The translations under genes and the position numbers were made by a program. Shown here piece by piece: positions 1 to 41,050 of a stretch of 41,050 nucleotides of DNA (position 1 is its first letter; the number at the start of each line of letters is the position of its first letter). The stretch covers positions 224,227 through 265,276 of the forward strand of contig QPGO01000118.1 in NCBI GenBank assembly GCA_008632985.1. Direction: 5' to 3'. This stretch comes from Psammoneis japonica (Eukaryota). The notes under the pieces were generated by a model. It worked only from the letters and a program-made list of their open reading frames with translations, made no database searches and had not been told where the DNA came from.

Positions 1-2279
1 TTTTTTGATTTCTGACCGTGCTTGTGCCTCAGGTGTCGAAGCTGCTGATTGCTGACTGTTTTAGGCACAGTGCGACAGGCAAGATTGACAGTGCAATCAT
101 GATCAAAAGTCTCCATGATGGACAGTCGAGCACAATCCTCGCCACATGTCAACCCAGTTGTGCAGATCCGACTGGTCAGTTTGGACAGTGTTCTTTTACC
201 ATCACGCCTGAAATCTCTGTTGTCAGAATGCAGATTGTCTCTTGCTGTGTTTGTGTCTTCAAACCATGCCTGAATGTGACCGTGTGCCGAGAGTCTACCT
301 TGTTCTTCCATTGCAGCTGTGAAAGCGGAGGGTCTCCCTGTGTAGAATTCAAAATCTTTTCTGGGTGAATTCCTTTTTAAGTCCCATCCTGTCACTTCTT
401 CTGTGACGATTTCCAATGACATTTCGAATGCAAAAGCCGTGACACCCGGGCACTCCACACGAAGCTCGTTTCTTGCCTCAGCCTTTTCGGTCAATTCTTC
501 ATCCGACATTTCTGTCACATCTCTGCCTTTGTCGATGAGCATGTCCGTGTGAATTTGAACTAAAAAGGAATTGGCATCATCGGGGCTTGTCGTTAAAAAT
601 GCTCCAGGTTGTCCAAAGTGGTGTTGGCAGGTTTCAGCATTTCTTCTCATTTTTTTTGCTGCTTCATTTGCATGTGGAATAGATGCCGACACCACATCCA
701 CTGCACTTAAGAAACGATGTCCCAATGCGCAATTCCTGCGTTCACCGGTCTGTCTGTCACATGTGGCACGGTCGACGTCGTCTTGTGTCAGTTCATTTGA
801 GAATTGTCTGGCTTGATTTTTGTCTCTTACTTTCCATCCAGCACTGTGCACCATTCGTTGCTTCACAGTCAGATTGCACAGGGTCAGAACAAAGAGTTGC
901 TTGTGGAAATGGGGCTGAGAAATGTGGGCCAAGTGATCTGCACAATGTGCTAGATTTGCACAGTCGGCGAGACTCCCGTCTTCTTTCATTCTTGTTTCAT
1001 CAACACCGCCACGCCCATGAGGAAATTGCAGCAAGCAAGCACATGCCAGGTTGTCATCCTCAAAGTCACTGACTGATTCTTTCAAAAGATCAGCTTTGAA
1101 TTCAATGTCAAAACTGCTTGCAGCTGCATCGTGCACCAAGTCTTTGAAGCTGTCTAAATTACGTTGTCCACCAGTTGTTGAAGAAACGGCACCATCGGGG
1201 AAACAAACACTGCAGGACTCCGTGGTTTCAATGTTTGCATTTTCGCTTTCGTCTAAACTGCCATTGTCCACTAAAACTGGATTCTGTAAATTACTTCGCA
1301 CTTCCTCTAGATCGATGTCTTGATTCATCCAATTCTCGTGGTGATGGACAAGCCATTCTAGTGCTCTCATTACACAGTGAGTCCTGATTTTGTTCTTTTG
1401 TCTGGCCACTCGCCTTTGCTCTGGTGTCATTTTGCCGGATGCCAACACAACCACATTTTGATGAAGGTTCAACACGTCAAAGTGCATGGTGGTGCGGGCG
1501 ATGCTCTTTGTGTTTATCTTGCAATGGGAAAGACCACCTTGCAGTTTCTTCTGTTTGCCGCCGACAAAACTGAAGCAGCAGCCATGTGTTTTCACAGGTG
1601 TCAACAAAGCCAGTTCTGCTTCGGTAAGACACGATAATTCAGGTGGTGGTGTTCCAAAACAGCAGTTGTTTGCCATTGCGTGTGGAGGCATAGAAGCAGT
1701 GCAGAGACTTCTTTCACAAGGCCTGCAACAAGTGAATCCTTCAGACCTTCTGTTGTCATTCGGAACAACATGTCGAGCTCTTGGCAAAAGCAACAGGTCG
1801 GAAATCCATCGGCAATCCCGTGGAATGTGGTTGTCATCGATGCGATGACAATCGTGTGGGTCTTCCGACACTTGGTTCCATTCAGATGGAGTTGACAGGT
1901 GTCTGGCTTCTTTCAATTTGTTGATAGAAAGTCGAGCAGTCTGAGACGGTTTTAACAATCTGTCACACACCAAACAAACCCAAGGGACGCACTCGTTTCC
2001 ATTCCTGCAACAAAGCTTCTCAAAACGTCTGTTCACATTGTCTCGGTGCCTGGTGTTGCTGTCATCCACAAGACAGCTTGTAACGGCAGGCTCACACTGC
2101 GCAAAGATGAGTTGAACCAACAACGCAGCAACAGGTGCACACCAGACAACACGACGACCCATGAGACTTGCAATGAGAACAATCTGAGTAAAGTCAATGT
2201 GATCAATAGATGGCAGATGATCCGACCTGCAACTGGTGTTCCCAGTCACTGCAGGGTCCACTTCCAGTGTTTTCTGGAC
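1..2279 (-). mobile_element. Helitron RepHel ORF (DUF6570-like N-terminal region plus Rep/HUH motifs), hypermutated, runs off the left edge
   Basis: Manual translation of the minus frame (codons starting at 2279, 2276 ... 5) is open to the window edge. It is absent from the ORF track because there is no stop. Motifs: CRPCERSLCTASMPPHAMANNCCFGTPPPELSCLTEAEL, RALEWLVHHH, LLQFPHGRGG, FGQPGAFLTTSPDD (Rep motif 1), EEQGRLSAHGHIQAW (HUH motif 2). Upstream in-frame TGAs at 2282 and 2318 may be CGA->TGA. Confidence 0.85.
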
Positions 2280-3146
2280 TCAGCAGACGAGTGTGTGCAA
2301 CAAATCTTCAGCACATCAAGAGCACAATGAACAACAATGAGTGCGATGTGACAAATCTGCAACCGGTGTTTCCCGGTCTCTGCAGACTCTGCGACCAGTG
2401 CATTCTGGTCCCCGCAGATGTTGTCTCAGCTGCAACTGGTGATGCTTTGTGTCGAGATGGCTGGAGAGTCTTCCTTTGCAAAAGTTCAGATCTCATGAAA
2501 AATGAGGGTTGAAGCAAACTTCCGTGCATGATTGACGGACCCGACACATTGTAGATCACTCGTCTCGATTTACTTGACACATCATCGTTCGCTCGTGCGT
2601 TCTACATTGGGATGTGCTGCTGACAGCAGCGGCATCACACCGGTGAGGTTGTGAACGTCAGCGGGAACGACATCTTGTGGAAGTTCAATGTGCGATGATG
2701 CATCTCGCAGTTGAAGTCGGTTCTGCCCACTACGACCACACGACGTTTGTGCGACTGTGACGCCTCATGTCTCGATCTACTGCCAAGTGTAACAGATGTG
2801 TGTTGTTGCAGTGTATCCTCATGATCGGCACGTTCCTTTCATCCCACTTGTGAGTCATGTCGTCTCGCAATGCATGCACTGACATTGAACCATTCGAGTG
2901 AAAAGATTCCAAATTTTAGAAAGATTTCCAGCCACACCTTTCTTTCGTACAATTTTACGTAGCCTGTCATGCTGGTCCTTCTTTCCTGCGTCTCGCAGTG
3001 GAAATTGCACGCAACATGAGTGACGCACCCACACGACCGTCACTGCACGACCGCTGCTGTGTTGGCTCTTCGTGGGAGCTCAGTGACTGGTGACCTTGTT
3101 TTTGGCTCACAATTTTGTGCCAATCAACAACGCAAGACTTTGTAAG

Positions 3147-3340
3147 ATGGCCCGTAAAACGCGAGGTTCTACCAAGAAGTTGGGCGCTTCTCCAACCAAG
3201 AAACAGCAGTCTCCCGTCAAGTTTTCTGCTTCCCTCATGAAAAAAATTGCCCCTGCCAAGACCGTTGGTCTCAATGATGAAGACATGAAGGCCGAAGATT
3301 TGTTGGCCAAGACGGGCATCAAGGTTGAAGTCGGCGCTAC
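3147..3340 (+). pseudogene. Lys-rich ORF fragment (MARKTRGSTKK...), apparently truncated at about 3340
   Basis: ATG at 3147 with protein-like sequence up to about 3340, after which the frame reads the antisense of another ORF. No family recognised. Confidence 0.3.
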
Positions 3341-3488
3341 CTCCGCGGTCTACCTCCGTGGTCGCAGTTGTGATCGTTGCGTCACGCGGCGGTGCAAGAG
3401 ACGCTGGCGTTGCGGCAACGGTGCCTTCGATTTCCTTTGCAAGAGACGTGTCCTTTTCATGAGACGACGTTGCATCCGATTCCTCCAT
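3340..3488 (-). pseudogene. Possible 5' fragment of a host gene (MEESDATSSHEK...), divergent from the DUF1275 gene
   Basis: ATG at 3488 below a promoter-like region with normal TA content; low-complexity N-terminus ending at the 13-bp duplication at 3337-3362. Confidence 0.3.
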
Positions 3489-3991
3489 AGTGGTGTATAA
3501 CACAAAACACGGAGGTTGTCGACAACGACCAGCGGTGCACTCCATGAAAGTGACTGATGCTACGCCGCTCGCTAATGGCGAGAACCGCGAAACAAAACGG
3601 AAGGCGTCCGTCGATTGGGTGCAATAGCCCTACGGTAGTATGTACTGTATGTGTTATGTAGGATGCATACCAGACACATGTTCTTGCTGACGTCGTACAG
3701 TATGTTTCAACGAATTCTACTGTACAAATCCTACTTATTATGTAACCGTGGCTGGATGTGAGGAACTGCTGGATAGCCATTGTATGCCTTGAGATAAACA
3801 TACTAACATACCAGAAACAATCACGTACTTTGGACCATTCCATGTCGGAACTCTAAATAACGATGATGTTTCGGGTGAAGTGCATCACTTTTTTCGTTGC
3901 GTTGGATGGCCGGCCATCACTTTTTGTGGATGTTCGTTGCTTTCGCTCTCTCTGCGGTTCGTGCCGTCGCATTGACAGGTTAACATCCATC

Positions 3992-5209
3992 ATGTCACCA
4001 CCTCTCTATAATGACGACAAGAAGGAATGCTTCTCATCAGAGGATATAGAACAAGGCAACGAGAGCCAAAAGAGTTCCTCAAGCATAACGCATGATAATT
4101 CGTCCGAGTCGAGCCATCATACCAACAAGGAATCATCCTCGTCGACCAACACCAACAACGACAAGGTCGTCTGTCCTTTTAATGACCAATACTCTCATCA
4201 CGAGTATATTTTTGTTGTTTGTGCTGGATTAGCTTTATCGTTCAATTCCGGTTACATCAATGGCGCGTGTCTGTCGGGACTTTTAGTCGACACTCGTCAG
4301 TCGGTTTCGGCCTTTACGGGTGCCTACACGGTATCGGCTTTGGCCTTGGCGGATAGCAATGTCGATTTGTTTGGATTTCAATTCAGCATGATTCTAAGCT
4401 TTATGGCCGGTGCCACCCTTGCTGGCATCTTGACACCCAAGGCACAAGCGTGGCGTATTGCACCAACCTATGGACCAACCTTTTTGGTGGGTGGTTGCTT
4501 TCTCTTGATTGCCACGCTGCTCGCCATGTTGGACAGTGACGATTCAAAACGACTCTTTTATTTTGCGGCAGCCGCAAATGGAGTTCAGAATGGAATTTCG
4601 AGCATGTATTCGTCCAATCTCATTCGTACCAGTCACTTGACGGGAACGTCCACCGACATTGGCTTGCTCGTTGGACAGTGTCTTCGTGGAAATTGTAAAC
4701 AGCTTTGGAAGCTGCGCTTGTTGGTAGGATTGGCGACATTTTTTTGGTTGGGCGGAATCGTGTCCTTGTATGCAACTCGAAGATTCACAAGACAATCTCT
4801 CTTGTTTAATACAATCTTGTTCTTTTCGATTGGACTTGCGTTGGTGGTGTTTTTGAGCAAGGAATTGGGCATTAGCATGTGGCAAGCCACGTGGGGCTCG
4901 TGGAGTTGGCAAGAAGCCCTGCACAAGCTGAGTTTGTACACGGCCGATGGACGACCCGTATCGGCTGAATCCATGATGGATGTGTTTGACAAGATTGATG
5001 CCGATGGTAGCGGTACGATTGAAGAGGACGAGTTGTACAGCGCGTTGAAGGAGGCGGGATTGACACGATTGAGTCACAAGCGAGTCAAGGCTATGATGAG
5101 TGTGGCAGATGAGAATTCAGATGGACTGTTGTCTCGAGAGGAATGGAAGGAACTTGTCATGGGAACAGTGTCTGACAAAAGTGCCAATCAAGGACAAGCA
5201 GCACAGTAG
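3992..5209 (+). CDS. DUF1275/YoaK-like multi-pass membrane protein with a C-terminal EF-hand pair (copy 1, intact)
   Basis: Intronless 405-aa ORF. The ATG at 3992 was chosen by alignment with copy 2. Motifs GYINGACL, AAANGVQN, RTSHLTGTSTDIG, about 6 hydrophobic helices, EF-loops DADGSGTIEEDE and DENSDGLLSREE. Confidence 0.88.
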   Translation: MSPPLYNDDKKECFSSEDIEQGNESQKSSSSITHDNSSESSHHTNKESSSSTNTNNDKVVCPFNDQYSHHEYIFVVCAGLALSFNSGYINGACLSGLLVDTRQSVSAFTGAYTVSALALADSNVDLFGFQFSMILSFMAGATLAGILTPKAQAWRIAPTYGPTFLVGGCFLLIATLLAMLDSDDSKRLFYFAAAANGVQNGISSMYSSNLIRTSHLTGTSTDIGLLVGQCLRGNCKQLWKLRLLVGLATFFWLGGIVSLYATRRFTRQSLLFNTILFFSIGLALVVFLSKELGISMWQATWGSWSWQEALHKLSLYTADGRPVSAESMMDVFDKIDADGSGTIEEDELYSALKEAGLTRLSHKRVKAMMSVADENSDGLLSREEWKELVMGTVSDKSANQGQAAQ

Positions 5210-5519
5210 TGTAGTGTGAGCCAACACAAACGAGTAGAAATAATAGAATAAGGTTACCATGGCCCAGCAGTCTTGAGTTTAGTCTTACGTTGCAGTGGTC
5301 GCCTAGTCTGGAGTGCAACATTGTTGATGCTCAACAGCCGTTTCTTTGTGAAAAAGAGCTGGTCGTCACCTTCACTCCGTTCTGGAGGTCTGTTCAACAT
5401 GACAATCGCCAGGGCGATTGCCGTCTGTGGTGTCGCTCGCACTCTCTCTTCTTTAGGCTAGTGCACTCCCGTTGAAGTAGCCTTGGCGCGGCTAGATGCA
5501 TGAGCTTGACCTTGAGATT

Positions 5520-8500
5520 GAGCTCAAATCCTGTGAACCGGGGACTGCACTCCAGCTGGAGAGCTGCTGCAACATTCAGAGAAAAGCCTGTCCTCATGGC
5601 TGACCCCACCCAAACTGACCAAGGGCCATGACAAAAGATGCAATCCAACCAAAATCCAATTGCAAGCTGAAGAGAGCAAAGCACCAAGTTGGAAAGGCAT
5701 GATGAAGAGATCAAGGCACCAAGTCAGAGTGCCCTGTGTGCACTGAGGGGGGGGGAGCAAGCAGCAGCTCAGGTTGGTGTTCAGAGCCTCCCAGGATGCA
5801 CCACTTCCCAGTGAAGGTCCAAATGGAGTGAGCAGCGTGCAAAGTTGCTGGGTGCTGCCCAGCACCCATGGCCAACCCCCACATGCACTGGTGGCAGCAA
5901 AAGAGCAATGCTGCTCCCCAAACACACGTGCACATGCCATCAGCAAAATTGCACCATTGGCCGACCACACTCTGTGCACAGCAAAAATGATGTGCATTTT
6001 GGCAAAATCTCTGATGATTTTTGGCCATGTCAAACTCATCTTTTGACACACTTGCTCAGCACACAAGTCAACAAAACAAACACTGTGAGGACTTCCTCAT
6101 CTCTCACAGGTTGTGCAGTTTTTTGTGGCATGCTGCACACAGCATCCAAGCCACATGCCTGAACAATGGCTTGTGCCAAGCAGCTGCAAGTGAGAGACAG
6201 TTGGCTTGGGTGGGAAGGTGGGGGCATTTTCCTCAAAAAAACATCATGGCCTTTTTTTCTTCTTGACACACATGCCATGGAGTTTTGTGATGCCAGCCAT
6301 GGCCATGCAGGGTGTGTGCAAGTTTTCAATGAGAGGAGCAGGGCCCTTTGATCATGATTTTGGATGAGGAAACCTTGACCTGTGTGCTTCTTTCCCTCCC
6401 ATGGCATTGCAAGGGTCCACATGTTGCCTTCACTGTGTTGCTGTTGTTGTTCAAGAAGACATTGCATGACAACTCATTTGTTTGGTCATTTTGAGAATTA
6501 GATGGAACAAACACTGCCGGATGTGAGGGCATTTGAGCAAATTCAGCCTCAGTCACTGGAAGCTGGTGCAGTGCAACAGAAAACAAGTTGACATGGCAAT
6601 CAGCAGGAAGTCCAGAATTGTGAGTTGACTGGCCATGTGGCCTGCCATTTGGGTGAGACAGTGACAGGCTTGAGCCACCAAAACTGTTGAACATCTGTCT
6701 CACAACACCATGGCAGGATTTGCTTGGTCCCTCACAAACTGACCCTGGCTGCTGTGATGGGGTCAATTTGACACAAATCCTGCATGCTGCATTGCTGGCC
6801 TGTTCCAGGCAAAAGAAAACCATCCTTAGATTGTTGGGGTTGACAAAACAACTGCTGCCCCTGTTTTTGGGTTTGGAAAATCCTGGCTGCTCTGCTTTGG
6901 CTCAACCCCTGATTCCCACAAAATGTGGTGCATGAACTCCCTGAGCTTTGATCTGGGCAAAAGTTTGGTGAGAATGACACCCACCAGATTTGTGCACCCA
7001 TCATCCCATGAAAGCTGCATGACTCCAGCAGCTTGTGCCTCACGAGCCTTGTGACAGATGATCACATCATGCACCCTCTTCAGCACAGCTGTCATGTTGG
7101 ATTCTTAAAGACAGAAAACAATGGAGGGCCCCTCAATTGGGGCACCCAGCATGCAAAACTTGTGACACAAAGTTTCTGCAGGCTCTGCTGCAATTTTCAT
7201 TGCAACAAATTCTGACCCAGGTGTCAAGGACTCAATGGCATTCTGCTGTTTTGAGTGCCACAAAAACAATGACCCCAAAATTAAACCTTCTCATCAAGTG
7301 ACAACTGGCATGACCCACACTGACAACACATGCTGTGGTGACACTCTTTTCCTGTGCCCAGGAAAAATCATGCGAGACAGCTTTGGCTGCCCCAGGTCTC
7401 TGTTCTGACCAACCACGCCTTTGTCCATCTCAAATGTGCCTTCATTCAAACAAGCAAATGTGCAAAGCACAGCATCAACATGGCTCCTGACTCATGGAGC
7501 CACACCACATGGGGTGACAGAATTGAAGTTGGTGTGACATCACAGTCTTGATGCAGAGCCAAGCTTGATCATCCATTGCAGGACTGTGTTGTGGCCAATC
7601 CAGTGAAGGCCCCAGGCAGTGAAAAATGTGGCAGCAGCCACAGCAGAGCAGCAGCATGCAACCTCTTCAGAGGTGTGACAGTTGTGCTCAGAAAGGTGCA
7701 AAATTGTCATTTGCATGTGAAAAAGCAAAGTGTGCACTGAGTGAGCAATCACACTTTGTGAAGTTGGCATTTCCATCAACACACACACAATGCAATGGCA
7801 AAAAAGTGCATGTTCAACCCTTGTCAATTGATGCACTGCATGTCCCACCACATGCATGAATGTGTGTGCACCACAAGTCATCTTCAATGACTTGCTCTCC
7901 ATCATTGTGCCACTGTCTGGCCAAATGAGTGGTGTTTGTCTGCACTCATTGCCAAATGTTTTGTCCAGCAGGAGCTGCAGTGACACAAGCAAGTGATGGC
8001 CAACAGTGCTTGTCATGAAAATCAATCAAATGGCACAGTCAGTCATCACATCCCAGCCATTGCCATTCAAGGCACAATGCAGAGTGGAGAACAAGTTGGC
8101 ACAGCACAGCCAACAGGAAATCTGGAACTGCAGATTCATTGGCTGCATGTGGCCTGGCACTTGGTGACAGTGACAGGCTCACTCAAACAACCAAAACTGT
8201 CAAACATCTGTCTGATGGCCCTGCAGCATCATTTGCTTGCATTGGGTTGGCCAAAATTAAAAAAAAAATTGGTCAAAATTTTGTTTGGCTCATGCAACTC
8301 AAGAAAGTTGGCCAAATTTTCTGGTGATTTTTTGATGGACAGAGTGTGTCTCAGTGCTGCAAAAATTCACTTCATTGATTGGGCAAAATCAAGCATCCAA
8401 AAACTCAGATTTGTTAAAAACAAGTGCATGTGCAGCAAACACACAAACACAAAACTGAAACAATCACACACCACCCCAGTTGGGGGTCAACCAATCAGCA

Positions 8501-11457: not shown

Positions 11458-11461
11458 CTGG

Positions 11462-11893
11462 TGCCCCATGCATGTGCCAGGCGCTGAAAAAGAAGATGTG
11501 TTACGACTTTGTCGTTGTGAAAATTATGAGCTGGTTTAGAGTAGAGAAAATGGGATCGTGTGAACAGGGAATCTTGCCAAATCCCCACTCGTTCGCATTT
11601 GGATCGCATCAAATCGATCGTGCGTTCGCATTGTGGATCGTGCGAATCAAGCCATCACGCGCCATGCACGAGTGATGTCATCGTGTGGAATCACGCCACC
11701 ATCGTGGGCCAGACGACGGGCTAGTGTGCTTCACACGGATGCTCTCTTGGCATCCTTCTGGAATTGCCCAAGACCCAGAGCCACGCCCTCCTGTGGTCGT
11801 GCTTCCCAGGCACGTGTTGACAACACTGCGTTGCCACGCACAAGAGGCTCATGCACGGTCTCGCCGTGTTGTCCAGCAGCGAGGCATGCTGCA
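11462..11893 (-). repeat. Gypsy 3' LTR
   Basis: Ungapped match to 18164-18595 with about 31 mismatches; adjacent PPT. Confidence 0.95.
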
Positions 11894-11922
11894 CACTCCC
11901 CCATGATCAGGGCCGTCAGGTC

Positions 11923-29104: not shown

Positions 29105-29446
29105 TGACAATATTCATATTTGCATGTTTTTACAACAACATCGGACCTCCACGATTCAATCAGAGATCCAAGATTCGAACCCCGTGTGCGATGCTCAGTC
29201 TCGAATCCCGCGGAAGCCGAGTCACGAATGCGATGTTTGTTCCTAGCTTCGCGCTTGTTTAACTTCGCGTTTCCTTTAGATGGCAGCTGCATCTGCTCAT
29301 AAAAACTGCTCATAATCTTTCTAACGTACTGATTATCACCTCTCAACTTTTGGTTCAATAAAGTTTGATTGATTGTTGTGTCGCAATCACAGCTTTTAAT
29401 CACTGAAAGTGCAGACGAATCTTAGAATTCTGGCTACTTTCCCACA
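29105..29446 (+). repeat. Copia-1 3' LTR (342 bp)
   Basis: Follows the PPT; matches the 5' LTR. Confidence 0.93.
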
Positions 29447-30294
29447 TCTCTACCTACATGACTGTAGTGTGAATGGCCAGTGTTCGGCCCTCTTTTGGAA
29501 AAAGTCGCCCTACGATCCACCTCAAGACCAGTGCTTTTGCATGCCATCCGTCGTTGGTAGCTGTGATCTTTTTCAACGTCTGCCCAAGTCTTCCCATGCC
29601 AACACATGGCCATCGTCATTTGTTGGTCGAAAGGGTACCAATTCCAAACTTCACATTGATTCTGCCGCGAGCTCCTTTTGGATGTACCTCATTTCGGGAC
29701 GAAAGCGCTGGGTCCTCTACGACCAAGCCGAACGGCCCTTTCTCTATGAGCACATTCAAACAAATGCCTTCATTGCCGATGTGCTCGCACTGAACAGCAC
29801 ATCTAATGCGGAGCACCAGTCCAAGATTTATGACTATTTCGATGCCACCTTCCCGTTGATTCGTACACAAGGCAAAGCCTATGAGATCGTTCAAGAAGCG
29901 GGACAGTTGATTTACATTCCACCCAATTCTCCTCATGCTGTGTGAGCAGCCCTTTTGTTCTGCAGCTGCATCTTGGAAAGCCTTCTGCAAGGCTGATCCA
30001 CAGGCATCCGTCACAAACAAGACTCGCTCAACCTTTCCATTGCCCCTTTTTCGTTCTTTTCGTTTCGTTCAGGGAAAACCTTGACGACGTGGTTGGAGTT
30101 GCCTTCAACAGCATGCCTCGAGCCGGTGTTGTGCAACACATTCATGAAGAAATTCATCATGAGCGGCGTTGTGATATGTCGAATTGTCACTTCGTTATTT
30201 GAAGGAAAACAAAAAGAAGAACGGCTTTAAGCCTGTCGAATCGGCAGATCCATTGCGCACCACTCTGGGTGAATTCACGGCTCAACACCAATGA
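29447..30294 (+). pseudogene. 5'-truncated JmjC/cupin-like 2OG-Fe(II) oxygenase gene with a GT-AG intron at 29942-30072
   Basis: WPSSFVGRKGTNSKLHIDS (HxD), SGRKRWVLY, QEAGQLIYIPPNSPHAV|ENLDDVVGVAFN, joined in frame by the intron. Probable frameshift near 30175; begins abruptly at the LTR end. Confidence 0.8.
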
Positions 30295-30349: not shown

Positions 30350-32600
30350 CTTTGCCACATCCGGAATGTTGTCTCTCATTTTGAACTAAAAACAGAGTTA
30401 AAGAGCCCATTGAGAAGAAGTGGGAACAGCAGCAGGAGGCACAGAGGAAGCTGCAGAGGCGGAGGAGCAGAAGGGACGCATGACGAAGTGTGTGGGGCGA
30501 CGAGCAGAAGGGATGGGAGATGAGGTGGTGTGGAGGGAGGGAGGAGAGAAAGCGCAGAGCATGAGGGGGGGGGGGGGGGGATGGCAAGTGATGTTGCACC
30601 CGAGTGTTTGAATGGCCCACTGGGATGGAGAGGAGGAATGGCAAGTGCTGCCAAAGCGCTTGCTGGAAATGCGATTCCAGGCGAAATCAGCAGATGTGAG
30701 GAGCGGGCTGACAGAGAAGTTAAGGTGTGAAGGAAGGCCAAGCAGGAGGTGTCAGAGCTGCAAAGAGCAGAGGAAGAGGACCAAAGGGGTCAGGCTGGGA
30801 GCAAACAGAGGAGAGCAAAGAGGAAGCGATGGCAAAAGAAGCCGAGAGTGCCGAGGTGATCATCAGCAAAACAAAGGAGAAAGATGCCATCATTGTTGAG
30901 CAATGCAACAATGAGGGAGCTGTCAGATGAAGGAGTGGAAGGTTCAAGAAACTTTGATCTCAGGCTCAAGTGGTGTGCCTCAGTTCCAAACAGCAGGGGA
31001 AGAGGAACATCAGGCAGGCCAGAAGGAGGGCGAGAGGGAACTTGGGGGGGGGCGATGACAATGGTGTTGTGGTGATGGCAGGAGGGAGTGGAAAGGGAAG
31101 AAGGAGAGGGCATGGAGATGCCAACATTGGCGGGGTGGGGCGGAGGAGTGGGTGGCGGGTGGAAGGAGATTTGAAAGGGTCAGCATGAATGTCACTCTTG
31201 GAGGAGTGGCAAAGTTTTGCAAGGGGCCCCAAGGTGTGTTGAGATGCAACAAAGACTGTGTCACAAAGACCATTGGAGAGCTTGGACCAGTGGCAGCCCT
31301 GCTGGCAGGAGAAGGCATGGTCACCACAGGCATGACTGCAGGTGCAGAGCACACTGACAAGGAAGGGGGGAAGGGCAGGGAGGCAGTGCTTGCACTGGGT
31401 GATGACAGCACAGGCATCAGAGGCAAGGCAAGAGCACTGAAAATGGTGAGAGAAGGAGTGAAGAGGGAGACCAGTCAGTGGAGAAAGGAGAGAATGCAAG
31501 GAGAGACTTGCACACTGGGAGGAGCATTGGTGGAGGTGTGCTTCTGACAACCATGATGGAAATGGCACACCAGGCCAGGGATGACAGCAGATTTGACTGG
31601 AGTGGCCAAGGAAGAGCTGGAAGAAGAAGAGTTGGAGGTCAGGATGGAGACAAAGTGACAAAATGGCATGCAGAGGTGAGGGGTGGAGCAGGGATTGTTC
31701 CAGGAGGACAGGGAGAGCTTGGGGCTGCGTGTGTGTGTGGGGGGNNNNNNNNNNNNNNNNNNNNNNNNNNNNNNNNNNNNNNNNNNNNNNNNNNNNNNNN
31801 NNNNNNNNNNNNNNNNNNNNNNNNNNNNNNNNNNNNNNNNNNNNNNNNNNNNNNNNNNNNNNNNNNNNNNNNNNNNNNNNNNNNNNNNNNNNNNNNNNNN
31901 NNNNNNNNNNNNNNNNNNNNNNNNNNNNNNNNNNNNNNNNNNNNNNNNNNNNNNNNNNNNNNNNNNNNNNNNNNNNNNNNNNNNNNNNNNNNNNNNNNNN
32001 NNNNNNNNNNNNNNNNNNNNNNNNNNNNAAGTTGGCACCAAGGAGATGAGGAGAGGAAGGAACAAAGCAGTGTTGCTTCAAGAGCTGGGCTTGAGTCTGC
32101 TTGTCATTGGGAGGTGGGCAAGGAGTTTGTCAACCTTGTCAGAGAGGGTGGAGGACACATCAGAGAGAAAGAAGTTGGCAAAGTCTTTGGAAGAGCCAAG
32201 GGGCCAGCCAAAGAAGCAGATGCCAAAGGTGAGCTCAGGGTTGTGAGAGGGATCATTGGCAGGGTTGATGAGAGAGGAGGAGCAGCTCAAGGAGAGCTGG
32301 CTTGAGAAGGAGGAGAGCAGGGGTGGGGCTGACCACCAGGTTGACCCCAGTGATTGAAGCAAGGATCTTGGTTTTGCTCAGGTTGAGCTTGATGCCATTG
32401 GGAGCACCAAGGGCAGCAAAGCACTCAAGAAACCACAGGATGGTGGAGTGAAGCAGGAACACATGTGCATCGTCAATGCAGGAGAGCCAACAGAGAGGTC
32501 AGGGAGCAGCCGGGGGGGTGTCAAGGCAGCTTCTCCTGGTTCAAAGAGCAAAGGACAATGGTCCCATGTGTGTCTGCATGTTGGCAATTTCACGTGGTCA
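30350..32600 (-). mobile_element. Degenerate non-LTR retrotransposon (CRE/R2-like: RT, CCHC and REL remnants), 5'-truncated, spanning the gap
   Basis: CIDD (former YxDD, 32469-32480), FAALGAPNGIKLNLSKTKIL, GICFFGWPLGS, CGDHAFSC...NGLCD, RPANV-like remnant at about 31125. Confidence 0.7.
31745..32028. other. Assembly gap (284 N)
   Basis: Run of N. Confidence 1.
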
Positions 32601-33557
32601 ACCCCCACACATTTCTCCAAGCTCCAGCTCCATGGCTCTGGCGCACTTCCATTTTGAGAGCTGCGCGCATCTCTCTCAAGTGCCTGTCATTCCAGACCAC
32701 AGAGTGCCCAATTTTCAAGTGCCAAAAACAACAGCAAGGTGTGCAAGATCCTCTCTGTTGACAAAGTGTTGTGCAACAATGCTGCAGCCCAACTCACAAG
32801 CATGCCCTGCAGCAGAGGGTGATCACAAATGGGGCCTTCATGCTCAGGCCAACTTCTTGGCACTCTCATTCACCCATCATGCTGTGTCTAACCTTCTGGC
32901 ATTTGCAGTCACAACCACTGAGTGAAATCTTGCTCCTCACTTGCTCATTGCTTTTTTCTTGCCTCTCAGCAGCACAGGCCAGGTTGAGACAGCCACTGTG
33001 AGTGTGACACAGTGCTGAAGCCAAACACCCTGTGCTGGGTGGCAACAACCCAAATCCATCAAAGCATGTGATGTTTGGTGTGCTGTCAGAGCCATTGCCA
33101 AACAACAATGACAACACACCTGTTGATCCAGAGTTTCCAAAATGGCAATTGTGTGTTGTGTGTGTTGAGTGCATGTAAAATTTGCAATCTCAGCTTGCAT
33201 GCGTGACCTCACTCATGCCAAATTTCACTGGCCTGACTTTGGAGAAAACAGCATGCATTGTGCAATTGTCATTGAGAAGAACAAAACAAGAAATGGGAAA
33301 ATGGGTGAAAGTGCCATTGACATGTCATGCCACAAAGTGGGACACCTCAATCACATTGTCAAACCCTTTGCCACACTCAAGCATTGCCCATGCTGCAACA
33401 TTTGATGAGAGCTGATGTGAGACACTCATGGCAGTTGCTGCAGCCAGGAGAGCTGATGACAGCCCACCCCAGGCTCGCCCCCTGGCATGACTTTAACAAA
33501 GATCTGCAGGACAGTTGTGGTGAGCCCCATCATCAGTGCATCACTGTGAGTGATGGC

Positions 33558-33620
33558 TGGCATTGTGCACATTGTTCCAATGAAAATTTGGATGTTGAAC
33601 TCAACATTTGCTCCATGTGC
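33558..33620 (+). pseudogene. RanBP2-type zinc-finger remnant
   Basis: WHCAHCSNENLDVELNICSMC resembles W-x-C-x2-C-x3-N-x6-C-x2-C with one extra residue. Confidence 0.45.
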
Positions 33621-33899
33621 AGCCAGATGCGTCATGGCAAATGGGTGTGAATGACATTGATGGGGAGGGTTTGGAATTTGAGTGTTTTTTTTAGAGTTCA
33701 AACAGTGAAGCAGCTGCTGAAGTGTGGACTGTCAAAAGATCTCATCACCATGCAGCTCTTCCAATCATCCTGTGGGTGGTTCACCTGTTGTGGAATCTGT
33801 GGTTTGTGTCAACAACATTTCAGTGGCCGATGGCAAGTTGTGGATGTTGACATTTCAAGTGAAATGTGAGCTTTTGAAGGAAGCCTGAGTGTTTTGATG

Positions 33900-34035
33900 C
33901 ACACTCCTCTTGATTGATGTCTTCTGTGTTGCCATCTTCACATTCAATGCAAAACATGGGTGATCCAGTTGCTGCATTCTTTGTCATGCATTTGACAATG
34001 CCGTTGCAAGAACGCCCTTTAAAGTGCTCAGAAAA
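33900..34035 (-). pseudogene. Tudor-like domain remnant
   Basis: FSEHFKGRSCNGIV...FCIECEDGNTEDINQEE resembles K.F.G..Y.G.V...Y.I.YEDGD.ED, with Tyr->Cys changes. Confidence 0.55.
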
Positions 34036-34090
34036 TTGGATGTTCACTGTGGGTTTCCAACACAGGTCTTTGGCTGGCATCTTGCCATTT

Positions 34091-34608
34091 CCATTCTCAG
34101 AATCATCAGGACTGGAGAGCCCGTGCTCACTCTGGCTTGGACAAAGAGGAGGAGAAGGAAATTTCACCATTTTTTCCCAACTCTCAAGTGATCCACTCAG
34201 CAATGCTTCCAATGGCATGTCCCTTGCATGCCCTTTGACAGATCAGGGTTTCCATTCTTGGAATTGTCAGGACTGGAGAGCACACCCTCACTCTGGCTTG
34301 GAGGAGGAGAAGGTGAAAGAAAAGCCACCATTTTCTCTGACTCAGACAATCCATCCAGCAATGCTTGTTCTGATGGCATGCCCCTTGCATGCTTTGGCAG
34401 ATCATGACCTCCATTCTTGAAGTCATCAGGGCCAGAAAGTCCATTCTCACTCTGGCTTGGAGGGGGAGAAGGCAAAAGAAAAGCCTCCGTTTTCTCTAAC
34501 TCAGGCAATCCATTCAGCAATGCCCCTGATGACATTCCCCTGCACACTTTGATGGATCAGGGTTTCTGTTCTCAGAATCGTTGGGGCTGGAAAGTCCATT
34601 CTCACTCT
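34091..34608. repeat. Tandem repeat, about 160-bp unit, about 3.3 copies
   Basis: Units start near 34091, 34252, 34411 and 34566 (ccattct...ctcactctggcttgg...cagcaatgc). Encodes PSPPPSQSE repeats on the minus strand. Confidence 0.85.
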
Positions 34609-34789
34609 CACCCACCTCTGTTTAAACTGCATCATTTGCTTCATTTGCACACACAACCTGCTCTGCACCCGCCACTCTTCTCATTGCCAGCTGCAACAAA
34701 GAGTGGCCAGGCAAGGGAAATGAGGAAACCAAAGATGACACCTGAGGCTCACAAGCAAGCAGAGAGTCTGTTGCATCAAGTGACAATGG

Positions 34790-35065
34790 TGACAGGATTT
34801 GAACAGGATTTGGGTGCGCGCAAAATGTCGCGCACTATTTAGTTTGCCACGCACAGTTTTGTGTGCTTTAGTTCCACGCGTTCGCGCGCGATGCAGTTTG
34901 CTTTCGAGCCACAAGGCTCACAAGAATGATGACAGCAGCCCAATTGTGCTGACTTGCATGTCTTTCGGCTCCTGCAACGGTCTCTGAGTGGAGACTCATC
35001 TGCCATTTAGACAGCAGCAAGGAGTCATTGTTTGAATTCTTGCCATTTGCCTTCAATTTCTGTCA
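34790..35065 (+). repeat. Copia-2 5' LTR
   Basis: Matches 38973-39246. Confidence 0.93.
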
Positions 35066-35069
35066 GATG

Positions 35070-38000
35070 GGCAGCATTGCTGGCAACGACGTTCGCGTCA
35101 TTGCATGCACCTCTCGCCAAGTCGACGTTCAGGGCATTGACGACCATCAATTGGTGGACATCCCCATTGTCACCGCTGGCACCGTCATTGAGACACAGCA
35201 TGGTCCCGTTGTTGCCATCCTCCATCAGCACGCATGCACGGGAAAGGGCAAGACCATTCATTCCTGTGGCCAGCTCGAATGGCACAAACACGATGTCAAT
35301 GATCGCTCTGTCAAGGTGCCCAACGGCTTGCAGCGTGTTGCCACACCTGATGGCTGTGTCATCCCAATTGACATCAAGGGTGGCTTGCCTTGTGTTGCCA
35401 TGCGGCCCCACACTGACGACGAATGGGACACCCTGCCACATGTCATCCTCACCGGAGATGACACATGGGACCCTTCCGTCCTCGATCACTCTATCACTGA
35501 CAACAACCAGTGGTGCGACGTGATCTCGGACCCACAGGACGATCCCACTGCCAACCTGTTTGATGAGTGTGGCAACTGCCGTCACCATGTCGTTGTCAAC
35601 AAGGCTGTCATGTCTGCCTCCTTGTCTGCCGATCACGCGTCCGCCCTCGATGACCACCTCATTCCGAATGAAGACGTCTTCTACGAGTGTCATCTACACG
35701 CGATTGACCCCAAGGATGGTGACGTTCCGCCTCCGGAGCGCAATGTGCAGCCCACGGACCCCCCCTGCGAGTCTCTTTGGCCCCACTTTGGTTTCCAACC
35801 CACCGACACGGTTCGTCGTACTTTCGACTGCACCACGCAATGCGCCTGCATGCCCGCCGGCACGCACCTTAAGAAGGCCTACAAATCGCCCAACCCCGCC
35901 CTTAATGTGCACCGCCGCAACGAGCCCATCGCCACTGACACCGTTTGTGCCGACACCCCGGCCGTTGACTCTGGTTGCACCAGCGCCCAACTGTTTGTTG
36001 GTGCCGAGTCTACCATCACTGATGTCTGCGGCACCAAAACGGACAAAGAGTTTGTCAACACACTTGAGGATCAGATCCGTGAGCGTGGTGCTCCATCCAA
36101 ACTCATTGGCGACCGTGCTCAAGTTGAGATCAGCAACAAGGTGCTCGGGATTCTACGAGCCCTCTTTGTCTCCAGCTGGCAAAGCGAGCCTCACCAGCAA
36201 CACCAAAACTTTGCCGAACGTCGACACCAGACTGTGAAGTGCATGGCGAACACCGTCATGGACCGTTTCGGTTCACCTGCCCACACATGGCCACTGGCGC
36301 TCATGTGCATGTGCTTCATGCTCAACCACACAGCGTCCCCACGTCTCCACTGGTGCACGCCCCTCGACTCTCACTGGCTCCACCCCGGACATCAGCCCAT
36401 TGCTTCGCTTTCACTGGTGGGAACCCATGTGCTTCCACCTCGATGACTCCGATTGGCCGTCTGAATCCCATGAGTTGCGTGGACACTTTGTTGGGATTGC
36501 TGAGCATGTCGGCCACCAGATGATCTTTAAGATTCTTTCTGACGACACTCAGAAGATCCTCTGCCTGTCCAATGTACGTTCCGCTGCTGCCGATCCTTCC
36601 GTTCGAAACCTGCGTCTTGATCCTCCTGATGGGGAGCCACCTGAACCCATCATCAAATCTCGCCATGACGACAACCCCGTCGATTCACCTGATGGGGAGA
36701 TCAGGACACCCAAGGTGCCAGTCTTTGATCCGCAAGACATCATCGGATGCACCTTCCTCATGCAGCCACAAGAGGACGGACAACGCCACAGAGCTCGCAT
36801 CATCAAGGCCGTCGAAGATCACGACTGGAAAGTGAACGGCAACCCTGAGCTCACTAAGTTCATCTGCTCTGTCAACAACGATGAATACGAGGAAGTCCTG
36901 GCCTGCAATGACATCATGAATCACATTGAGCAAGAAGACGAAGACACTGCTGTTTGGAAATTTTGACGCATTGTGTCACACGAAGGACCTCTGAAGCCTC
37001 ATGACCCAACCTGGAAAGGCTCAAGCTACAACATTGTGCTTGAATGGGAAAGTGGGGAGATCACGTCCGAGCCTCTTGCCATCATCGCCAAGGACGGCCC
37101 TGTCACCTGCGCCATCTGTGCACAAGAGAACGGACTTCTCGACACTGATGGCTGGAAGCGGTTCCGCACCATCGCGAGGCGCCAGAAGAAGCTGTTCCGC
37201 ATGGCCAACCAAGCCAAGCTTCGCTCCTTCCACACTGCACCTCGCTGCAAGTGCAGACACGAAGTTCCCCAGAACTGCAAACATGCCATGTCACTAGACG
37301 AACGCAATGGCAACCGCAAATGGGGAGACGCAACCAATCTCGAGATGGACCAACTCGATGAATACGAAGTCTTTCATGACTGCGGGCCCTCCGAGTCTTC
37401 CACTCCTCCTGCGGGACACAAGAAGATCCGAGTGCACCCAGTGCACGACGTGAAACACGACGGCCGCCACAAGGCACGACTCACAGCCGATGGACACCTC
37501 ACGGACGTGCCCATCGACAGTGTCTGCTCCGGAGCAGTCTCCCTTCATGGCCTTCGGCTGATGATTTTCCTGGCCGAACTCAACGAGTTGGAGACATGGG
37601 CCACCGACATTGGCAATGCCTGCCTTGAAGCCACCACCAAGGAGAAGCTGTACATTGCAGCTGGACCCGAATTTGGCAAACTCGAAAGCCACATTCTTGT
37701 CATCCACAAGGCCCTGCATGGACTGCGCAGCTCCGGCCTCCGCTGGCACGAGTGCTTCGCTGACTGCCTGTGAGCTGAAGGTTTCTTCCCCTGCCACGCG
37801 GAACCTGACATTTGGATGCGCAGGAACGGCGACCACTGCGAACATGTTGCCGTTTGTGTGGATGACCTCCCATTGCCATGAAGGACCCTCAATCTTTCGT
37901 CGACACTCTCACGGAAAAGCACAAGTTCAAGCTCAAGGGCACGGGACCGATTGAGTTCCATCTAGGCTGCGACTTCTCCTGGGATCCTGACGGCACCTTG

Positions 38001-38920
38001 TGCCTGTCTCCGCGCAAGTGCATCGAATGCATGGTCGACAGCTGCACATGACTGTTTGGGGAGAAACCTGCCACCAATGCCCTGTCCCCTCTGGAGAAGG
38101 GTGACCACCCCGAACTGGACACTTCTGAACTGCTGGGGCCCGATGGCATTCAACAGTTCCAGTCTCTTGTTGGTTCCCTCCAATGGGCAGTGTCCCTTGG
38201 TCGAATTGACATTGCCACGGCCGTCATGTCACTCTCTAGCTTCCGAGCTGCGCCCCGTCAAGGCCACTTGGATCGTGCCAAACGTGTCTGTGGGCACCTC
38301 TCCAAGATGCGACACGGCTCTCTCCACGTTCGCACGGAAGAGCCCGACCATTCGGATCTCCCTGCACCGGCCTGTGAATGGATGCATTCCGTGTGCGGCA
38401 AAGCAGAGGAGATGATCCTGAAGGACGCTCCACCGCCCCTTGGCAAGTTTGTCACTGCCACCCACTACGTCGATGCAAACTTGCATCATTGCATGCTCAC
38501 CGGACGCTCTGTCATGGGAATGCTCCACTTCCTCAACAAATTCCCGCTGATTGGTTCTCTAAGAAGCAAGCCACCGTAGAGACTGCAACCTGTGGGTCTG
38601 AATTTGTTGCCGCAAGGACTTGTGTTGAGCAGATTGTCGACCTGCGCATCACCCTGCACTGCCTCGGAGTCCCGATCCGTGACATTGGTTGCATGTTCGG
38701 TGACAACAAGTCGGTTGTAGACAGTGCCACCATCCCGCACTCCAAGTTACACAAGCGACACACTGCGCCATTGTTCCACCATGTGTGTGAGGCAATTGCC
38801 TCTGGTTTCCTTGAGCTCCACTTCATCGAAGGCTCCCGCAACCCTGCTGACATTCTCAGCAAGCATTGGGGTTGCTCCCAAGTCTGGGACCTTCTCCGCC
38901 CCCTCATGTTCTGGAACTTC
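35070..38920 (+). pseudogene. Copia-2 pol remnant (partial PR, IN, RT, RH) with stops and frameshifts
   Basis: IAGNDVRVI, EPIATDTV, SEPHQQHQNFAERR, DVKHDGRHKARL, WATDIGNACLEA, KALHGLRSSG, VAVCVDDL, TVETATCGSEFVAAR, NPADILSKHW. Confidence 0.92.
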
Positions 38921-38972
38921 ATTCCATCCGAAGTCGAATCTGTTTCTGTGACTCCTCAAGCAAACTGGGGAG

Positions 38973-39246
38973 TGACAGGATTTGAACAAGATTCAGGTGC
39001 GCAAAATGTCGCGCGCTGTTTAGTTTGCCGTGCACAGTTTTGTGTGCTTTAGTTCCGCACGTTCGCATGCGATGCAGTTTGCTTTCGAGCCACAAAGCTC
39101 ACAAGAACAATGACAGCAGCCCGATCACACTGACTTGCACGTCTTTCGGCTCCTGCAACGGTCTCTGAGCGGAGACTCATCTGCCATTTAGACAGCAGCA
39201 AGGAGTTGTTGTTTGAGTTCTTGCCATTTGCCTTCAATTTCTGTCA
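38973..39246 (+). repeat. Copia-2 3' LTR
   Basis: Preceded by the PPT, followed by TSD AATGG. Confidence 0.93.
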
Positions 39247-41050
39247 AATGGTGTGACACAGGGATGAAGCCAAACATCCTGTGCTTGGTGGCAACAACCC
39301 AAATCCATCAACATCATTTTGAGTGCAAAAGCCAAACATCCTGTGCTTGGTGGCAACAACCCAAATCCATCAATGCATGGTGTGCTGTCAGAGCCATCAC
39401 CAAATGGTGGCTCTCTCCAAGTCTGTGAACACTGCAGCTTTTCCTTGAGTCTGCCTCCTGGTGTGAGCAAGGGCATGGGTGCATCTTGCTAAGATGGCAC
39501 ATCCCTGACATTCAGGTGCAGTTTCTGCACAGAGCCTGGCTCCAATGCCTTGTTGTACAACCCTGTTGCTCATGCCATGGTGCCAATGATTCAAGCAGAC
39601 AGTGCATTGCTGTCCATTGTCTTGGGTTGACAGACGCAGCGTGTGTGTGTGTTGCTCACTGAACAGCTGCAGGAACATGAAAAAAAAAAAAGAGATGCAG
39701 ATCTTTTGAAAAAGCAAAGTGTGAATCCAATGGAAATTTCTTTTGGGAGGAAGAAACAATGATGTGCTTGAAAATTTTGAAGCCACTTTTCTGAAAGAGA
39801 AAAAGAAAAGAGTGAAGCAAAGAGAGTGTGGCAATGAACCAGGAGTGTCATCAGGGCATTGTTGGTGTGACAGCATGCCAAAAGCAGCAGCAATGGGAAA
39901 GCAGCAGTGGCACAAATTGGGGCATTGTTGGAGTGACAGTGCACAGCGTCAAGCACGGGAAAACAGCGGCGACGTGCGCACGCGCATCGCTGCACTCTCC
40001 ACCATTGTGTGCTCTTGCACCACACAACAGAGGTCTCAGTGACACAGAATGGCAACCCTGTTTGTCACCTGGAAGCTTTTCATGCACAATTCGAGTTGCC
40101 ACAGCTTCAGCCCTTTGTCTCAAAAAATCCAAAGGGAGAGACCCTTTGCACACAGATGATTCGGCGCATCATGCTTTGCTCTTTGTGCTTCTCCACAGTG
40201 CAAAAAACCAAGTGTAGAGTTGTGGCTGGCACAACGTGACCCCTCCCAACAATGTCCCGAGCGCTGGTGTGACAACTTGCAGCACCTGCTAGCTAGAGTG
40301 GAGCTAGCTAGCTGCTAGAGTGGCAGCACCTGCCATTTTTGGCAACAGCCTTTTTTGCAAAATGCGCGATCGACCCACTGAATGGGGGCGTCTTGCTGGC
40401 GACCGTAGTTGAAGATGGTGAAGCTTACGTCATAGAAACGCCACCACACACTTTTTACTTATGAAACACCAAATGGCTTACTTAAGGACATGACATACGT
40501 CACCATCCACACTTTCGAACAGCACTCTCTAGGAGGGCCCTACTTTTCTACATACTGTACTGTAGTGACTGTCAATCACATACCGTACGGTACGACGATG
40601 ATGTCACAGCACACAACGCAGATAGAACTCAATATCCCAAATCTGCCGCACATCATTATTCTGTCTTCTTTCCTTCTGGTTGAGAATGCGATGGTGTTGA
40701 CCGATACTTCACCATGAGCACCGACAGAGAAGAAGCATACGCTAAACCTTGAATTTGAGGACGCCAACATATCATGGTACGTCTTTAAAAGGACGTTCAT
40801 CAGTCAATTACTGTACGAAGAACGTTGACTTGCATGTGTGTCCAGAGACACGACTGACGGAGAATTCTTTTACTTCATGCATCATCCCTTTTTTTAATCG
40901 CAGGCAGCCAATTTATGTTTCAATGGTTCTGACTTCGGTTCAGTGTGTATTTTTATTAATTGTCTTTGAATGTGCTAGACGGAATAAATTTGTAGAGTCG
41001 GTTTTACGACAGGCGGAGAGGAGTCTATGAAAAACGAATGCCGCCCCCTC

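Follow-up and report, generated by a model that had tools for sequence, protein, structure and literature searches.

A stretch of 41,050 nucleotides (nt) from the diatom Psammoneis japonica (GenBank assembly GCA_008632985.1, contig QPGO01000118.1, positions 224,227 to 265,276 of the forward strand) was analysed at its full length; it is referred to below as the window, and positions are counted from its first nucleotide. It carries two related host genes, a Helitron fragment, three long terminal repeat (LTR) retrotransposons (gypsy, copia-1 and copia-2) and several blocks of extreme base composition. Much of this DNA has lost its TpA dinucleotides and is rich in TpG and CpA. We consider it likely that most of the transposon-derived DNA in this diatom window has undergone a targeted mutation of TpA to TpG or CpA, acting at the level of DNA and after insertion.

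Organisation of the window

Pfam was searched with 108 reading frames of at least 110 amino acids (aa), and in six frames with stops read as X, at E ≤ 0.01, or E ≤ 5 for region 30400-34600. The parts of the window are as follows; classes A, B and C are composition classes defined in the next section, and o/e is the ratio of observed to expected dinucleotide counts.

1-3350, minus strand: Helitron fragment; class B, TA o/e about 0.15-0.3; Pfam DUF6570 and Helitron_like_N
3-2279, minus strand: Helitron open reading frame of 759 aa; 1 Tyr (0.1%), Cys 5.0%, His 4.9%
3400-5400, plus strand: host gene a and unique upstream DNA; frame 3857-5209; DUF1275/YoaK membrane domain and EF-hands (Pfam)
5500-11300, no strand assigned: class A block; TA and CG almost nil, TG/CA about 2; single copy; without recognisable coding signal
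11461-18596, minus strand: gypsy LTR retrotransposon; LTRs 11461-11894 and 18163-18596; class B except 14800-16450
14800-16450, minus strand: gypsy protease/reverse transcriptase block, TA-normal; TA o/e 0.7-1.25; YLDD intact at 15253-15264
18600-21100, no strand assigned: class A block upstream of host gene b, recognised by composition
21499-22794, plus strand: host gene b, paralogue of gene a, 88% amino-acid identity
22867-29446, plus strand: copia-1 LTR retrotransposon; LTRs 22867-23216 and 29100-29446; Pfam RVT_2, gag_pre-integrs and SH3_retrovirus
30400-34600, no strand assigned: class A block; N gap 31745-32028; 159-nt tandem repeat 34087-34608
34789-39251, plus strand: copia-2 LTR retrotransposon; class B; LTRs 34789-35070 and 38972-39251; Pfam RVT_2
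39260-40050, no strand assigned: class A tail, right of copia-2; 61-62-nt repeat

Helitron, gypsy, copia-1 and copia-2 are all supported by Pfam, gypsy with the domains rve, Integrase_H2C2, RT_RNaseH, RVT_1 and RVP. The depth of read-derived contigs corresponds to about 20-35 copies of the Helitron fragment and, at 9,000-32,000, to about 150-500 copies of gypsy. An earlier reading of the window, made from its letters and open reading frames (the sequence-only reading), had used the same labels of Helitron, gypsy and copia, and had also named a Mutator-like element (MULE) and a long interspersed nuclear element (LINE); these last two find no support from Pfam or tblastn. In the supposed LINE region, 30400-34600, no Pfam reverse transcriptase match appears at E ≤ 5, and the CIDD found there is a short motif standing alone.

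Beyond short repeats, no relation between the class A blocks emerged from a low-stringency self-comparison. The 159-nt tandem repeat at 34087-34608 (3.3 copies, 75% matches) adjoins copia-2 on the left, while the 61-62-nt repeat at 39267-39382, on its right, recurs at 33002-33062. Because repeats lie on both sides, the probable target of the copia-2 insertion is an older class A element that carries them.

Dinucleotide composition

Three composition classes with sharp borders alternate across the window. Class A comprises 5500-11300, 18600-21100, 30400-34600 (minus the N gap) and 39260-40050, 13,005 nt in all; class B comprises 1-3350, 11300-14750, 16480-18560 and 34650-39250 (13,483 nt); and class C comprises 3400-5400, 14800-16450, 21500-30000 and 40200-41050 (13,004 nt). 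For the window as a whole, dinucleotide counts give o/e ratios of 0.29 for TA, 0.62 for CG, 1.53 for TG and 1.55 for CA. Class A retains 23 TA of an expected 824 (o/e 0.028, z -27.9) and class B 134 of an expected 781 (o/e 0.17, z -23.2), against an o/e of 0.65 in class C. The depletion of TpA is thus real, extreme and far beyond chance. CpG behaves differently, being near normal in class B (o/e 0.80) and class C (0.95) and almost absent from class A (0.09). CA/TG rises from 1.20 in class C to 1.53 in class B and 1.86 in class A, and GC content is slightly raised (0.52 vs 0.48).

Other dinucleotides shift little. In classes A and B, o/e for AA, AT, AC and AG stays inside 0.86-1.19, compared with 0.03-0.17 for TA. 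AA/TT is not depleted (1.19, 1.14 and 1.05 in classes A, B and C), AG/CT shows no clear rise (1.07, 0.91 and 0.97), and AT lies at 0.86, 0.93 and 0.96. Two candidate processes are rejected on these values: methylation at ApT, since AT is not depleted, and error-prone Pol-eta mutagenesis or repair of the WA-to-WG type (W, A or T), which the sequence-only reading had offered as one possible mutator and which would change A to G at AA as well as at TA.

Borders in TA content fall near 3400, 5495, 21500 and 40215, against the host genes and unique flanks, and TA density returns within 40215-40290. The near-absence of TA and saturation in TG and CA that the sequence-only reading had reported for its elements hold up in the dinucleotide counts (z -28 and -23), and so does its remark that host regions are TA-normal, class C having a TA o/e of 0.65 with sharp edges. 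Across its single span of 1-40430 depletion is uneven, copia-1 and 14800-16450 both being TA-normal. That reading does not mention the concurrent lack of CpG in the most extreme blocks.

Direction of change

Motifs conserved in transposon proteins give the depletion a direction, Cys or His standing where Tyr is usual. The examples quoted in the sequence-only reading were all located: in copia-2, CVDD (37855-37866), ETATCGSE (38579-38602), ALHGL (37711-37725) and GNACLEA (37612-37632); and on the minus strand, CIDD (32469-32480), NCATTE in gypsy (13392-13409) and FPHGRGG in the Helitron (1005-1025), where the consensus of relatives has FPYGRGG.

The same replacement is seen when whole domains are aligned. 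The Helitron frame was compared with 28 relatives, a consensus-Tyr column being one in which Tyr is the commonest residue and reaches at least 40%. Tyr is kept at none of the 13 such columns (0/13), which hold 6 Cys, 5 His and 2 Phe, so that 11 of 13 have changed to Cys or His. Columns of other residues are well preserved in the same frame (Trp 6/6, His 9/9, Cys 9/11, Phe 16/22). For the gypsy integrase and 15 relatives, Tyr is kept at 0 of 7 columns, with 3 Cys, 3 His and 1 Ala (6/7 Cys or His). Tyr accounts for 0.1-0.5% of residues in class B frames (in copia-2, 0.5%, with Cys 4.4% and His 6.0%), which are also enriched in Cys and His; the corresponding share of Tyr is 2.5-3.5% in the host genes, copia-1 and the gypsy block with normal TA.

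An A:T to G:C transition at TpA turns TAY into TGY or into CAY, depending on the strand. The coding and template strands have been hit about equally, with Cys:His ratios of 6:5 in the Helitron and 3:3 in the gypsy integrase. The alignments therefore support, as far as comparison with relatives can, a direction of TA to TG/CA, that is, an A:T to G:C transition at TpA on both strands; the same direction, A to G at 5'-TA, had been proposed in the sequence-only reading and is upheld by the Tyr columns and by the LTR pairs described below.

Change of this kind never gives rise to a stop: TAA yields TGA or CAA, and TAG yields TGG or CAG. Heavily mutated elements hence retain very long open frames, such as the Helitron frame of 759 aa with its one Tyr. 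Stops arise only where such change is joined by CpG decay (CGA to TGA), as it is in class A.

LTR pairs and the timing of TpA loss

An element inserts with identical LTRs, and the differences between them record what has happened since. The gypsy LTRs (434 nt) are 92.9% identical, with 31 mismatches, of which 30 are transitions. Fourteen of these form 7 adjacent TG|CA doubles, 6 are TA|TG or TA|CA, and 6 are CG|TG or CG|CA; the remainder consists of 4 other transitions and 1 transversion. The copia-2 LTRs (282 nt) differ at 25 positions, all of them transitions (25/25), distributed over 5 TG|CA doubles (10 mismatches), 1 TA|TG, 10 CG|TG or CG|CA and 4 other transitions. A TG|CA double represents an ancestral TA or CG in which each copy was changed at a different base. 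CpG ancestry predicts 0.17 doubles in gypsy and 1.2 in copia-2, and 7 and 5 are observed; the ancestors of the doubles were consequently mostly TA. Counted in this way, 13 TA-derived steps differ between the gypsy LTRs and 6 between those of copia-2.

A simple model of the LTR pair gives the loss per copy of TA (p_TA) and of CG (p_CG). The estimates are p_TA 0.76-0.82 and p_CG 0.10 for gypsy, and p_TA 0.71-0.95 and p_CG 0.36 for copia-2. Columns outside pyrimidine-purine (YpR) steps differ at 5/196 positions in gypsy and 4/138 in copia-2, corresponding to an ordinary change of about 1.3% per copy. To an order of magnitude, these figures suggest that TpA sites changed 100 times faster than ordinary sites. 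Since nearly all differences within the LTR pairs fall at YpR steps, with TG|CA doubles among them, about 70-95% of TpA was lost after the copies had separated.

Targeting and uneven action

Depletion affects the Helitron, gypsy and copia-2, while host genes and unique flanks are normal: TA o/e is 0.35-0.93 over 3400-5400 in 400-nt windows, a region of depth about 60 and thus single copy, and 0.6-0.9 in the unique DNA of 3400-3857 and beyond 40200. The counts support a confinement of TpA loss to transposon-derived DNA within the window.

Not every transposon is affected, as seen in copia-1. Its TA o/e of 0.55-0.96 is normal, and HYVDD is intact at 28053-28067. Its LTR pair keeps 13 TA|TA with 2 TA|TG (p_TA 0.07), and 5/187 non-YpR columns differ, or about 3/180 without two columns that lie beyond the LTR end. 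Background divergence of these LTRs is similar to that of gypsy and copia-2, and yet TA has been spared. As a side observation, the two copia-1 LTRs are nearly identical, but its coding region is spread over 5 frames, broken by an in-frame stop (24802-24804) and by two or more changes of frame, and does not represent an intact element.

High-copy gypsy and Helitron sequences are depleted; the DNA of host paralogues a and b, which is 89% identical, is not, and 75 of its 150 mismatches are transversions, an ordinary spectrum. Because copia-1, the gypsy block at 14800-16450 and the paralogues are spared, the process selects certain elements or is episodic, and appears to be neither regional nor general to duplicated DNA.

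Flanking-base context

Survival of TpA in class B relative to class C (a comparison with unrelated sequence, in small counts) is lowest at R-TA-Y (ATAT 0, ATAC/GTAT 0.05, GTAC 0.11; R, purine; Y, pyrimidine) and highest at Y-TA-R (CTAA/TTAG 0.52, TTAA 0.48, CTAG 0.45). A multiplicative model with one flank per strand gives a rough fit. The balance of products, per 1000, is +16.5 for TGY vs +3.8 for TGR, and +12.9 for CAY vs +7.5 for CAR. All three informative single hits in the LTRs (3/3) lean to A followed by a pyrimidine, and codons show 7 Cys vs 4 His after a pyrimidine and 3 Cys vs 5 His after a purine. Taken together, these data point tentatively to a preferred motif of 5'-T-A*-Y, with A followed by a pyrimidine, rather than R-T-A. 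TAG is among the least depleted contexts.

Sequencing reads and other copies

One sample's sequencing run carries the window sequence (0.89 of sampled words). Over the host gene and the class A blocks, contigs derived from these reads reach a depth of about 60-66. One of them, 5,668 nt long and at depth 65.9, spans 5823-11490 with 3 differences from the window, and another covers 18570-20000 at depth 61.3 with 1 difference. The TA-free sequence is therefore present in the reads, as single-copy DNA. A second, small run of the same sample covers 3336-5336 (the host gene) and 14008-18676 (parts of gypsy), and neither the Helitron nor class A. Among the runs that contain window sequence, none is listed as RNA.

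Variants among other copies follow a similar pattern. Of the 40 best-supported variant rows (254 more lie beyond these), the Helitron and gypsy account for 36 and single-copy DNA for 4. These 36 include 12 that make up 6 adjacent CA<->TG doubles, 11 of TA<->TG or TA<->CA, 4 of CG<->TG or CG<->CA, and 9 that fit no such pattern.

The footprint in other organisms

Traces of the footprint can be found among relatives of these transposons in public assemblies. Two of 30 long Helitron relatives have less than 1% Tyr, namely P0140 (0 Tyr in 1355 aa) and P0130 (0.8%). At 40 consensus-Tyr columns P0130 has 19 His and 11 Cys, where three controls keep 26-30 Tyr. Similarly, 10 of 127 relatives of the gypsy integrase of at least 150 aa have less than 1% Tyr; one of these, P0246, is devoid of Tyr over its 606 aa. 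The Tyr-poor relatives come from ENA, JGI and Logan assemblies, and one cluster is labelled 'hypothetical protein'. Tyr-poor Helitron and gypsy 'proteins' (P0140, P0130, P0246, P0157 and others) have raised Cys and His, and are annotated as ordinary proteins. At the same time, TpA is normal (0.57-1.02) in all 18 of 18 metagenome loci that contain relatives of the window's integrase, which weighs against a wide reach of the process. Since Tyr-poor relatives exist while all 18 loci are normal, the footprint is present in some other organisms and is not general.

Host genes and neighbouring features

The best relatives of host gene a are diatom proteins of 47-54% identity (Thalassiosira, Bacillariaceae, Nitzschia, Seminavis and others). 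Genes a and b lie 17.6 kb apart. Relative to gene a, gene b loses similarity past residue ~406 and has a different C-terminus, with the second EF-hand region altered, and the DNA similarity of the two genes ends at 22870, where the copia-1 LTR starts. Between the copia-1 3' LTR and the following class A block, a reading frame on the plus strand (29400-29942) contains a JmjC/cupin domain (Pfam E 7e-10 and 7.5e-9). It has an intermediate TA o/e of 0.3-0.6 and may be a host gene fragment.

Relation to known systems

A closely similar phenomenon has been reported in the chlorarachniophyte Bigelowiella natans, in which integrated viral DNA undergoes TpA-specific hypermutation (Mettrop et al., bioRxiv 10.64898/2026.01.13.699255). 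In Illumina data from mutation-accumulation lines, two integrated viral regions mutated at about 1000x the background rate; 230 of 231 mutations were A to G or T to C, all at TpA and only in some lines. Low-TpA clusters with high CpA and TpG were also described, TpA-poor coding sequences being enriched in reverse transcriptase and DDE domains; the authors suggest that a DNA adenine deaminase similar to ADAT2 is responsible. The sequence-only reading had regarded the system as undescribed, and in this it was overtaken by the preprint: with TpA-only hypermutation reported in B. natans in 2026, the diatom represents a second lineage and not a first discovery. The main text of the preprint makes no mention of diatoms, flanking bases or CpG, and searches of the literature on diatom TpA or transposon hypermutation and on repeat-induced point mutation (RIP) returned no diatom report.

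In each respect open to testing from sequence alone, the footprint in the window agrees with what is described in B. natans. Both consist almost entirely of A:T to G:C transitions at TpA that give TpG and CpA. Both are confined to foreign or mobile DNA and spare host genes, with the proviso that the class A blocks are not demonstrably mobile; and both act unevenly, on some lines there and on some elements here. The two cases differ in that the rate was measured directly in B. natans, whereas the present estimate is an indirect one, drawn from relatives and LTR pairs (a TA loss of 0.76-0.95 for each LTR copy vs a change of about 0.013 at ordinary sites). They also differ in host and target, B. 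natans being a rhizarian with mainly giant-virus and virophage inserts and a Rho TpA of 0.45, in contrast to transposons with an o/e of 0.03-0.17 here (10.64898/2026.01.13.699255). What is new is the diatom lineage, and a far deeper saturation of this recently described kind.

The resemblance to RIP in ascomycete fungi lies in dinucleotide-specific transitions in repeats on both strands, in transposon inactivation and in a sharp-edged footprint. Unlike in the window, RIP changes C to T mostly at CpA, makes TpA and stops and lowers GC, whereas here TpA is destroyed, no stop is made and GC is slightly up. CA/TG is enriched to 1.5-1.9, contrary to the C:G to T:A change by which RIP creates TpA. 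RIP is triggered by duplication; here high-copy gypsy and Helitron elements are hit, and the 89%-identical host paralogues show an ordinary spectrum. Decay of 5-methylcytosine, by turning CG into TG or CA, would account for the class A CpG ratio of 0.09 and for the CG|TG and CG|CA sites in the LTRs (6 in gypsy, 10 in copia-2), but it cannot remove TpA, which in class B is about 80% gone while CpG o/e is 0.80. The view of the sequence-only reading that neither RIP nor CpG decay can explain the loss of TpA is thus supported.

In diatoms, one paper shows that DNMT5a is required for the methylation of P. tricornutum transposons, and that many diatoms carry RID-related DNMT4 enzymes of unknown function (PMC9998398); this is in keeping with CpG decay as a second process in the window. 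Among deaminases, amphioxus BjADAT2 is described as an ADAT2/TadA-family enzyme acting on DNA (PMC10354150), and a Trypanosoma ADAT2 acting on DNA is cited in the B. natans preprint (10.64898/2026.01.13.699255).

Proposed mechanism and alternative explanations

In the process that we propose, A:T pairs of 5'-TpA-3' would be converted to G:C in chromosomal DNA, on both strands and after insertion. Tyr codons would become Cys or His codons, destroying the YxDD and FPYGRGG catalytic motifs, and TA-containing signals would be removed. Action would be element-specific or episodic rather than follow a uniform clock, and would favour R-TA-Y most and Y-TA-R least. CpG would be removed by a second process, at a slower pace; since diatom transposons are CpG-methylated, this would most simply be 5-methylcytosine decay, and the two processes together would yield old single-copy relics free of both TA and CG. 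Chromosomal DNA would be the substrate, rather than RNA or a single-stranded replication intermediate, because a DNA transposon is affected, both strands are hit about equally and single-copy relics are saturated.

The signature itself, its direction, its action on DNA after the copies had separated and its restriction to particular elements are directly visible in the data; that the process is also enzymatic, and a genome defence like the TpA hypermutation of B. natans, we infer. A DNA adenine deaminase of the TadA/ADAT2 kind is a possible catalyst, though our judgement leans somewhat against it. Conversion of A to inosine in DNA by such an enzyme would yield A to G. The tRNA target A34 always follows U33, and the TadA substrate reads U-A-C; this U33-A34 context resembles the T-A-C and T-A-T of the hot motif, itself tentative. 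We know of no ADAT2/TadA-type enzyme that has been shown to act on transposons in any organism. A broader conjecture, which we regard as doubtful, is that diatoms, chlorarachniophytes and the environmental eukaryotes behind the Tyr-free proteins might share a dedicated defence enzyme, a natural T-A-Y adenine deaminase of chromosomal DNA. It may have arisen from TadA/ADAT2, would be directed against mobile DNA that is silenced, and would represent an A:T to G:C counterpart of RIP and APOBEC which, with the decay of methylated CpG, leaves old transposons devoid of TA and CG alike.

Several observations weigh against targeted mutation of transposon DNA as we propose it. A TA-normal gypsy block (14800-16450) lies inside a depleted element; the C-terminal segment of the gypsy reverse transcriptase seems duplicated at the junction, near 13860-15000, which suggests a nested copy, a recombinant copy or an assembly chimera. 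The class A blocks match no Pfam family, including in six frames with stops as X, and show no tblastn match to 77 Helitron, gypsy and copia proteins, and thus are not demonstrably transposons. No clear target-site duplication was found at gypsy, copia-1 or copia-2. With 150-500 copies of gypsy and a gap in the assembly, the two gypsy 'LTRs' could stem from different copies; if the pair is chimeric, the doubles date the changes to after copy divergence, and not strictly to after this insertion. The run that carries the window sequence is that of one sample, with a library of unrecorded type and probably the source of the assembly itself, and does not provide an independent platform. Finally, chemistry at A and at T cannot be separated, because A to G on one strand equals T to C on the other.

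This last point leads to the alternative that survives best, although we judge it improbable. The T of TpA could be modified by a TET/JBP-type enzyme, to 5-hydroxymethyluracil or a base-J-like form, or the A could be N6-methylated, with mispairing or mis-repair giving T to C. TA being self-complementary, TA to CA and TA to TG are not assignable to A or to T by sequence, and class A loses both self-complementary YpR steps, CG and TA, as would be expected of two symmetric modifications. 5-hydroxymethyluracil in dinoflagellates and base J at kinetoplastid telomeres do sit at T before A. Class B, however, loses TA and keeps CpG (0.80), so the two losses are uncoupled, and ApT, the known eukaryotic context of N6-methyladenine, is not depleted. 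Pairs of 5-hydroxymethyluracil with A are not known to be strongly mutagenic.

Editing of transposon RNA from A to inosine by an ADAR-like enzyme, fixed by reverse transcription and insertion, is very improbable. ADARs favour a U before the edited A, according to the B. natans preprint (10.64898/2026.01.13.699255), and the retroelements gypsy and copia-2 are among the targets. The same signature is carried, however, by the Helitron, which has no RNA intermediate; both strands are changed about equally; single-copy relics are saturated; and the LTRs of a pair differ at TA-derived sites, where RNA editing would give identical LTRs. ADARs prefer a 3' G, which is the opposite of what is seen with TAG.

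An artefact of sequencing or assembly, such as miscalling caused by modified bases in heterochromatin, would be in keeping with the reliance on one sample as the sole run with the sequence, and with an assembly that has a gap and collapsed repeats. Such an origin is highly unlikely in view of read-built contigs at a k-mer depth of about 66 that match 5.7 kb of class A bar 3 places, of copies of one family that differ mutually at TA-derived sites, of Tyr-poor transposon proteins in assemblies of other origin (ENA, JGI, Logan), and of the B. natans result, which the preprint attributes to Illumina mutation-accumulation data (10.64898/2026.01.13.699255).

Least probable of all is the absence of any targeted mutator: neutral decay, GC-biased gene conversion or selection against TA/UpA might be suggested by the mildly low TA of class C (0.65), as in many eukaryotes, but gene conversion would not single out TpA (and, in class A, CpG) while leaving AA, AT and other W steps unchanged, selection for function would not destroy conserved catalytic Tyr, TA sites changed about 100x faster than other sites of the same LTRs, and copia-1, of similar LTR divergence, was spared.

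Implications

Targeted mutation of TpA, if confirmed genome-wide, would mean that diatoms, which are major marine primary producers, possess a transposon-killing mutator that is RIP-like but runs from AT to GC. Together with Bigelowiella, it would also make TpA hypermutation a recurrent eukaryotic defence and not a lone oddity, and the occurrence of one signature in two distant hosts makes a comparative search for the enzyme possible. That enzyme, if the reading is true, would naturally edit A to G in chromosomal DNA at a defined motif, which makes it interesting for base editing. Long Tyr-free frames are kept and older elements escape Pfam, so that transposon annotation and gene prediction would be misled in such genomes.

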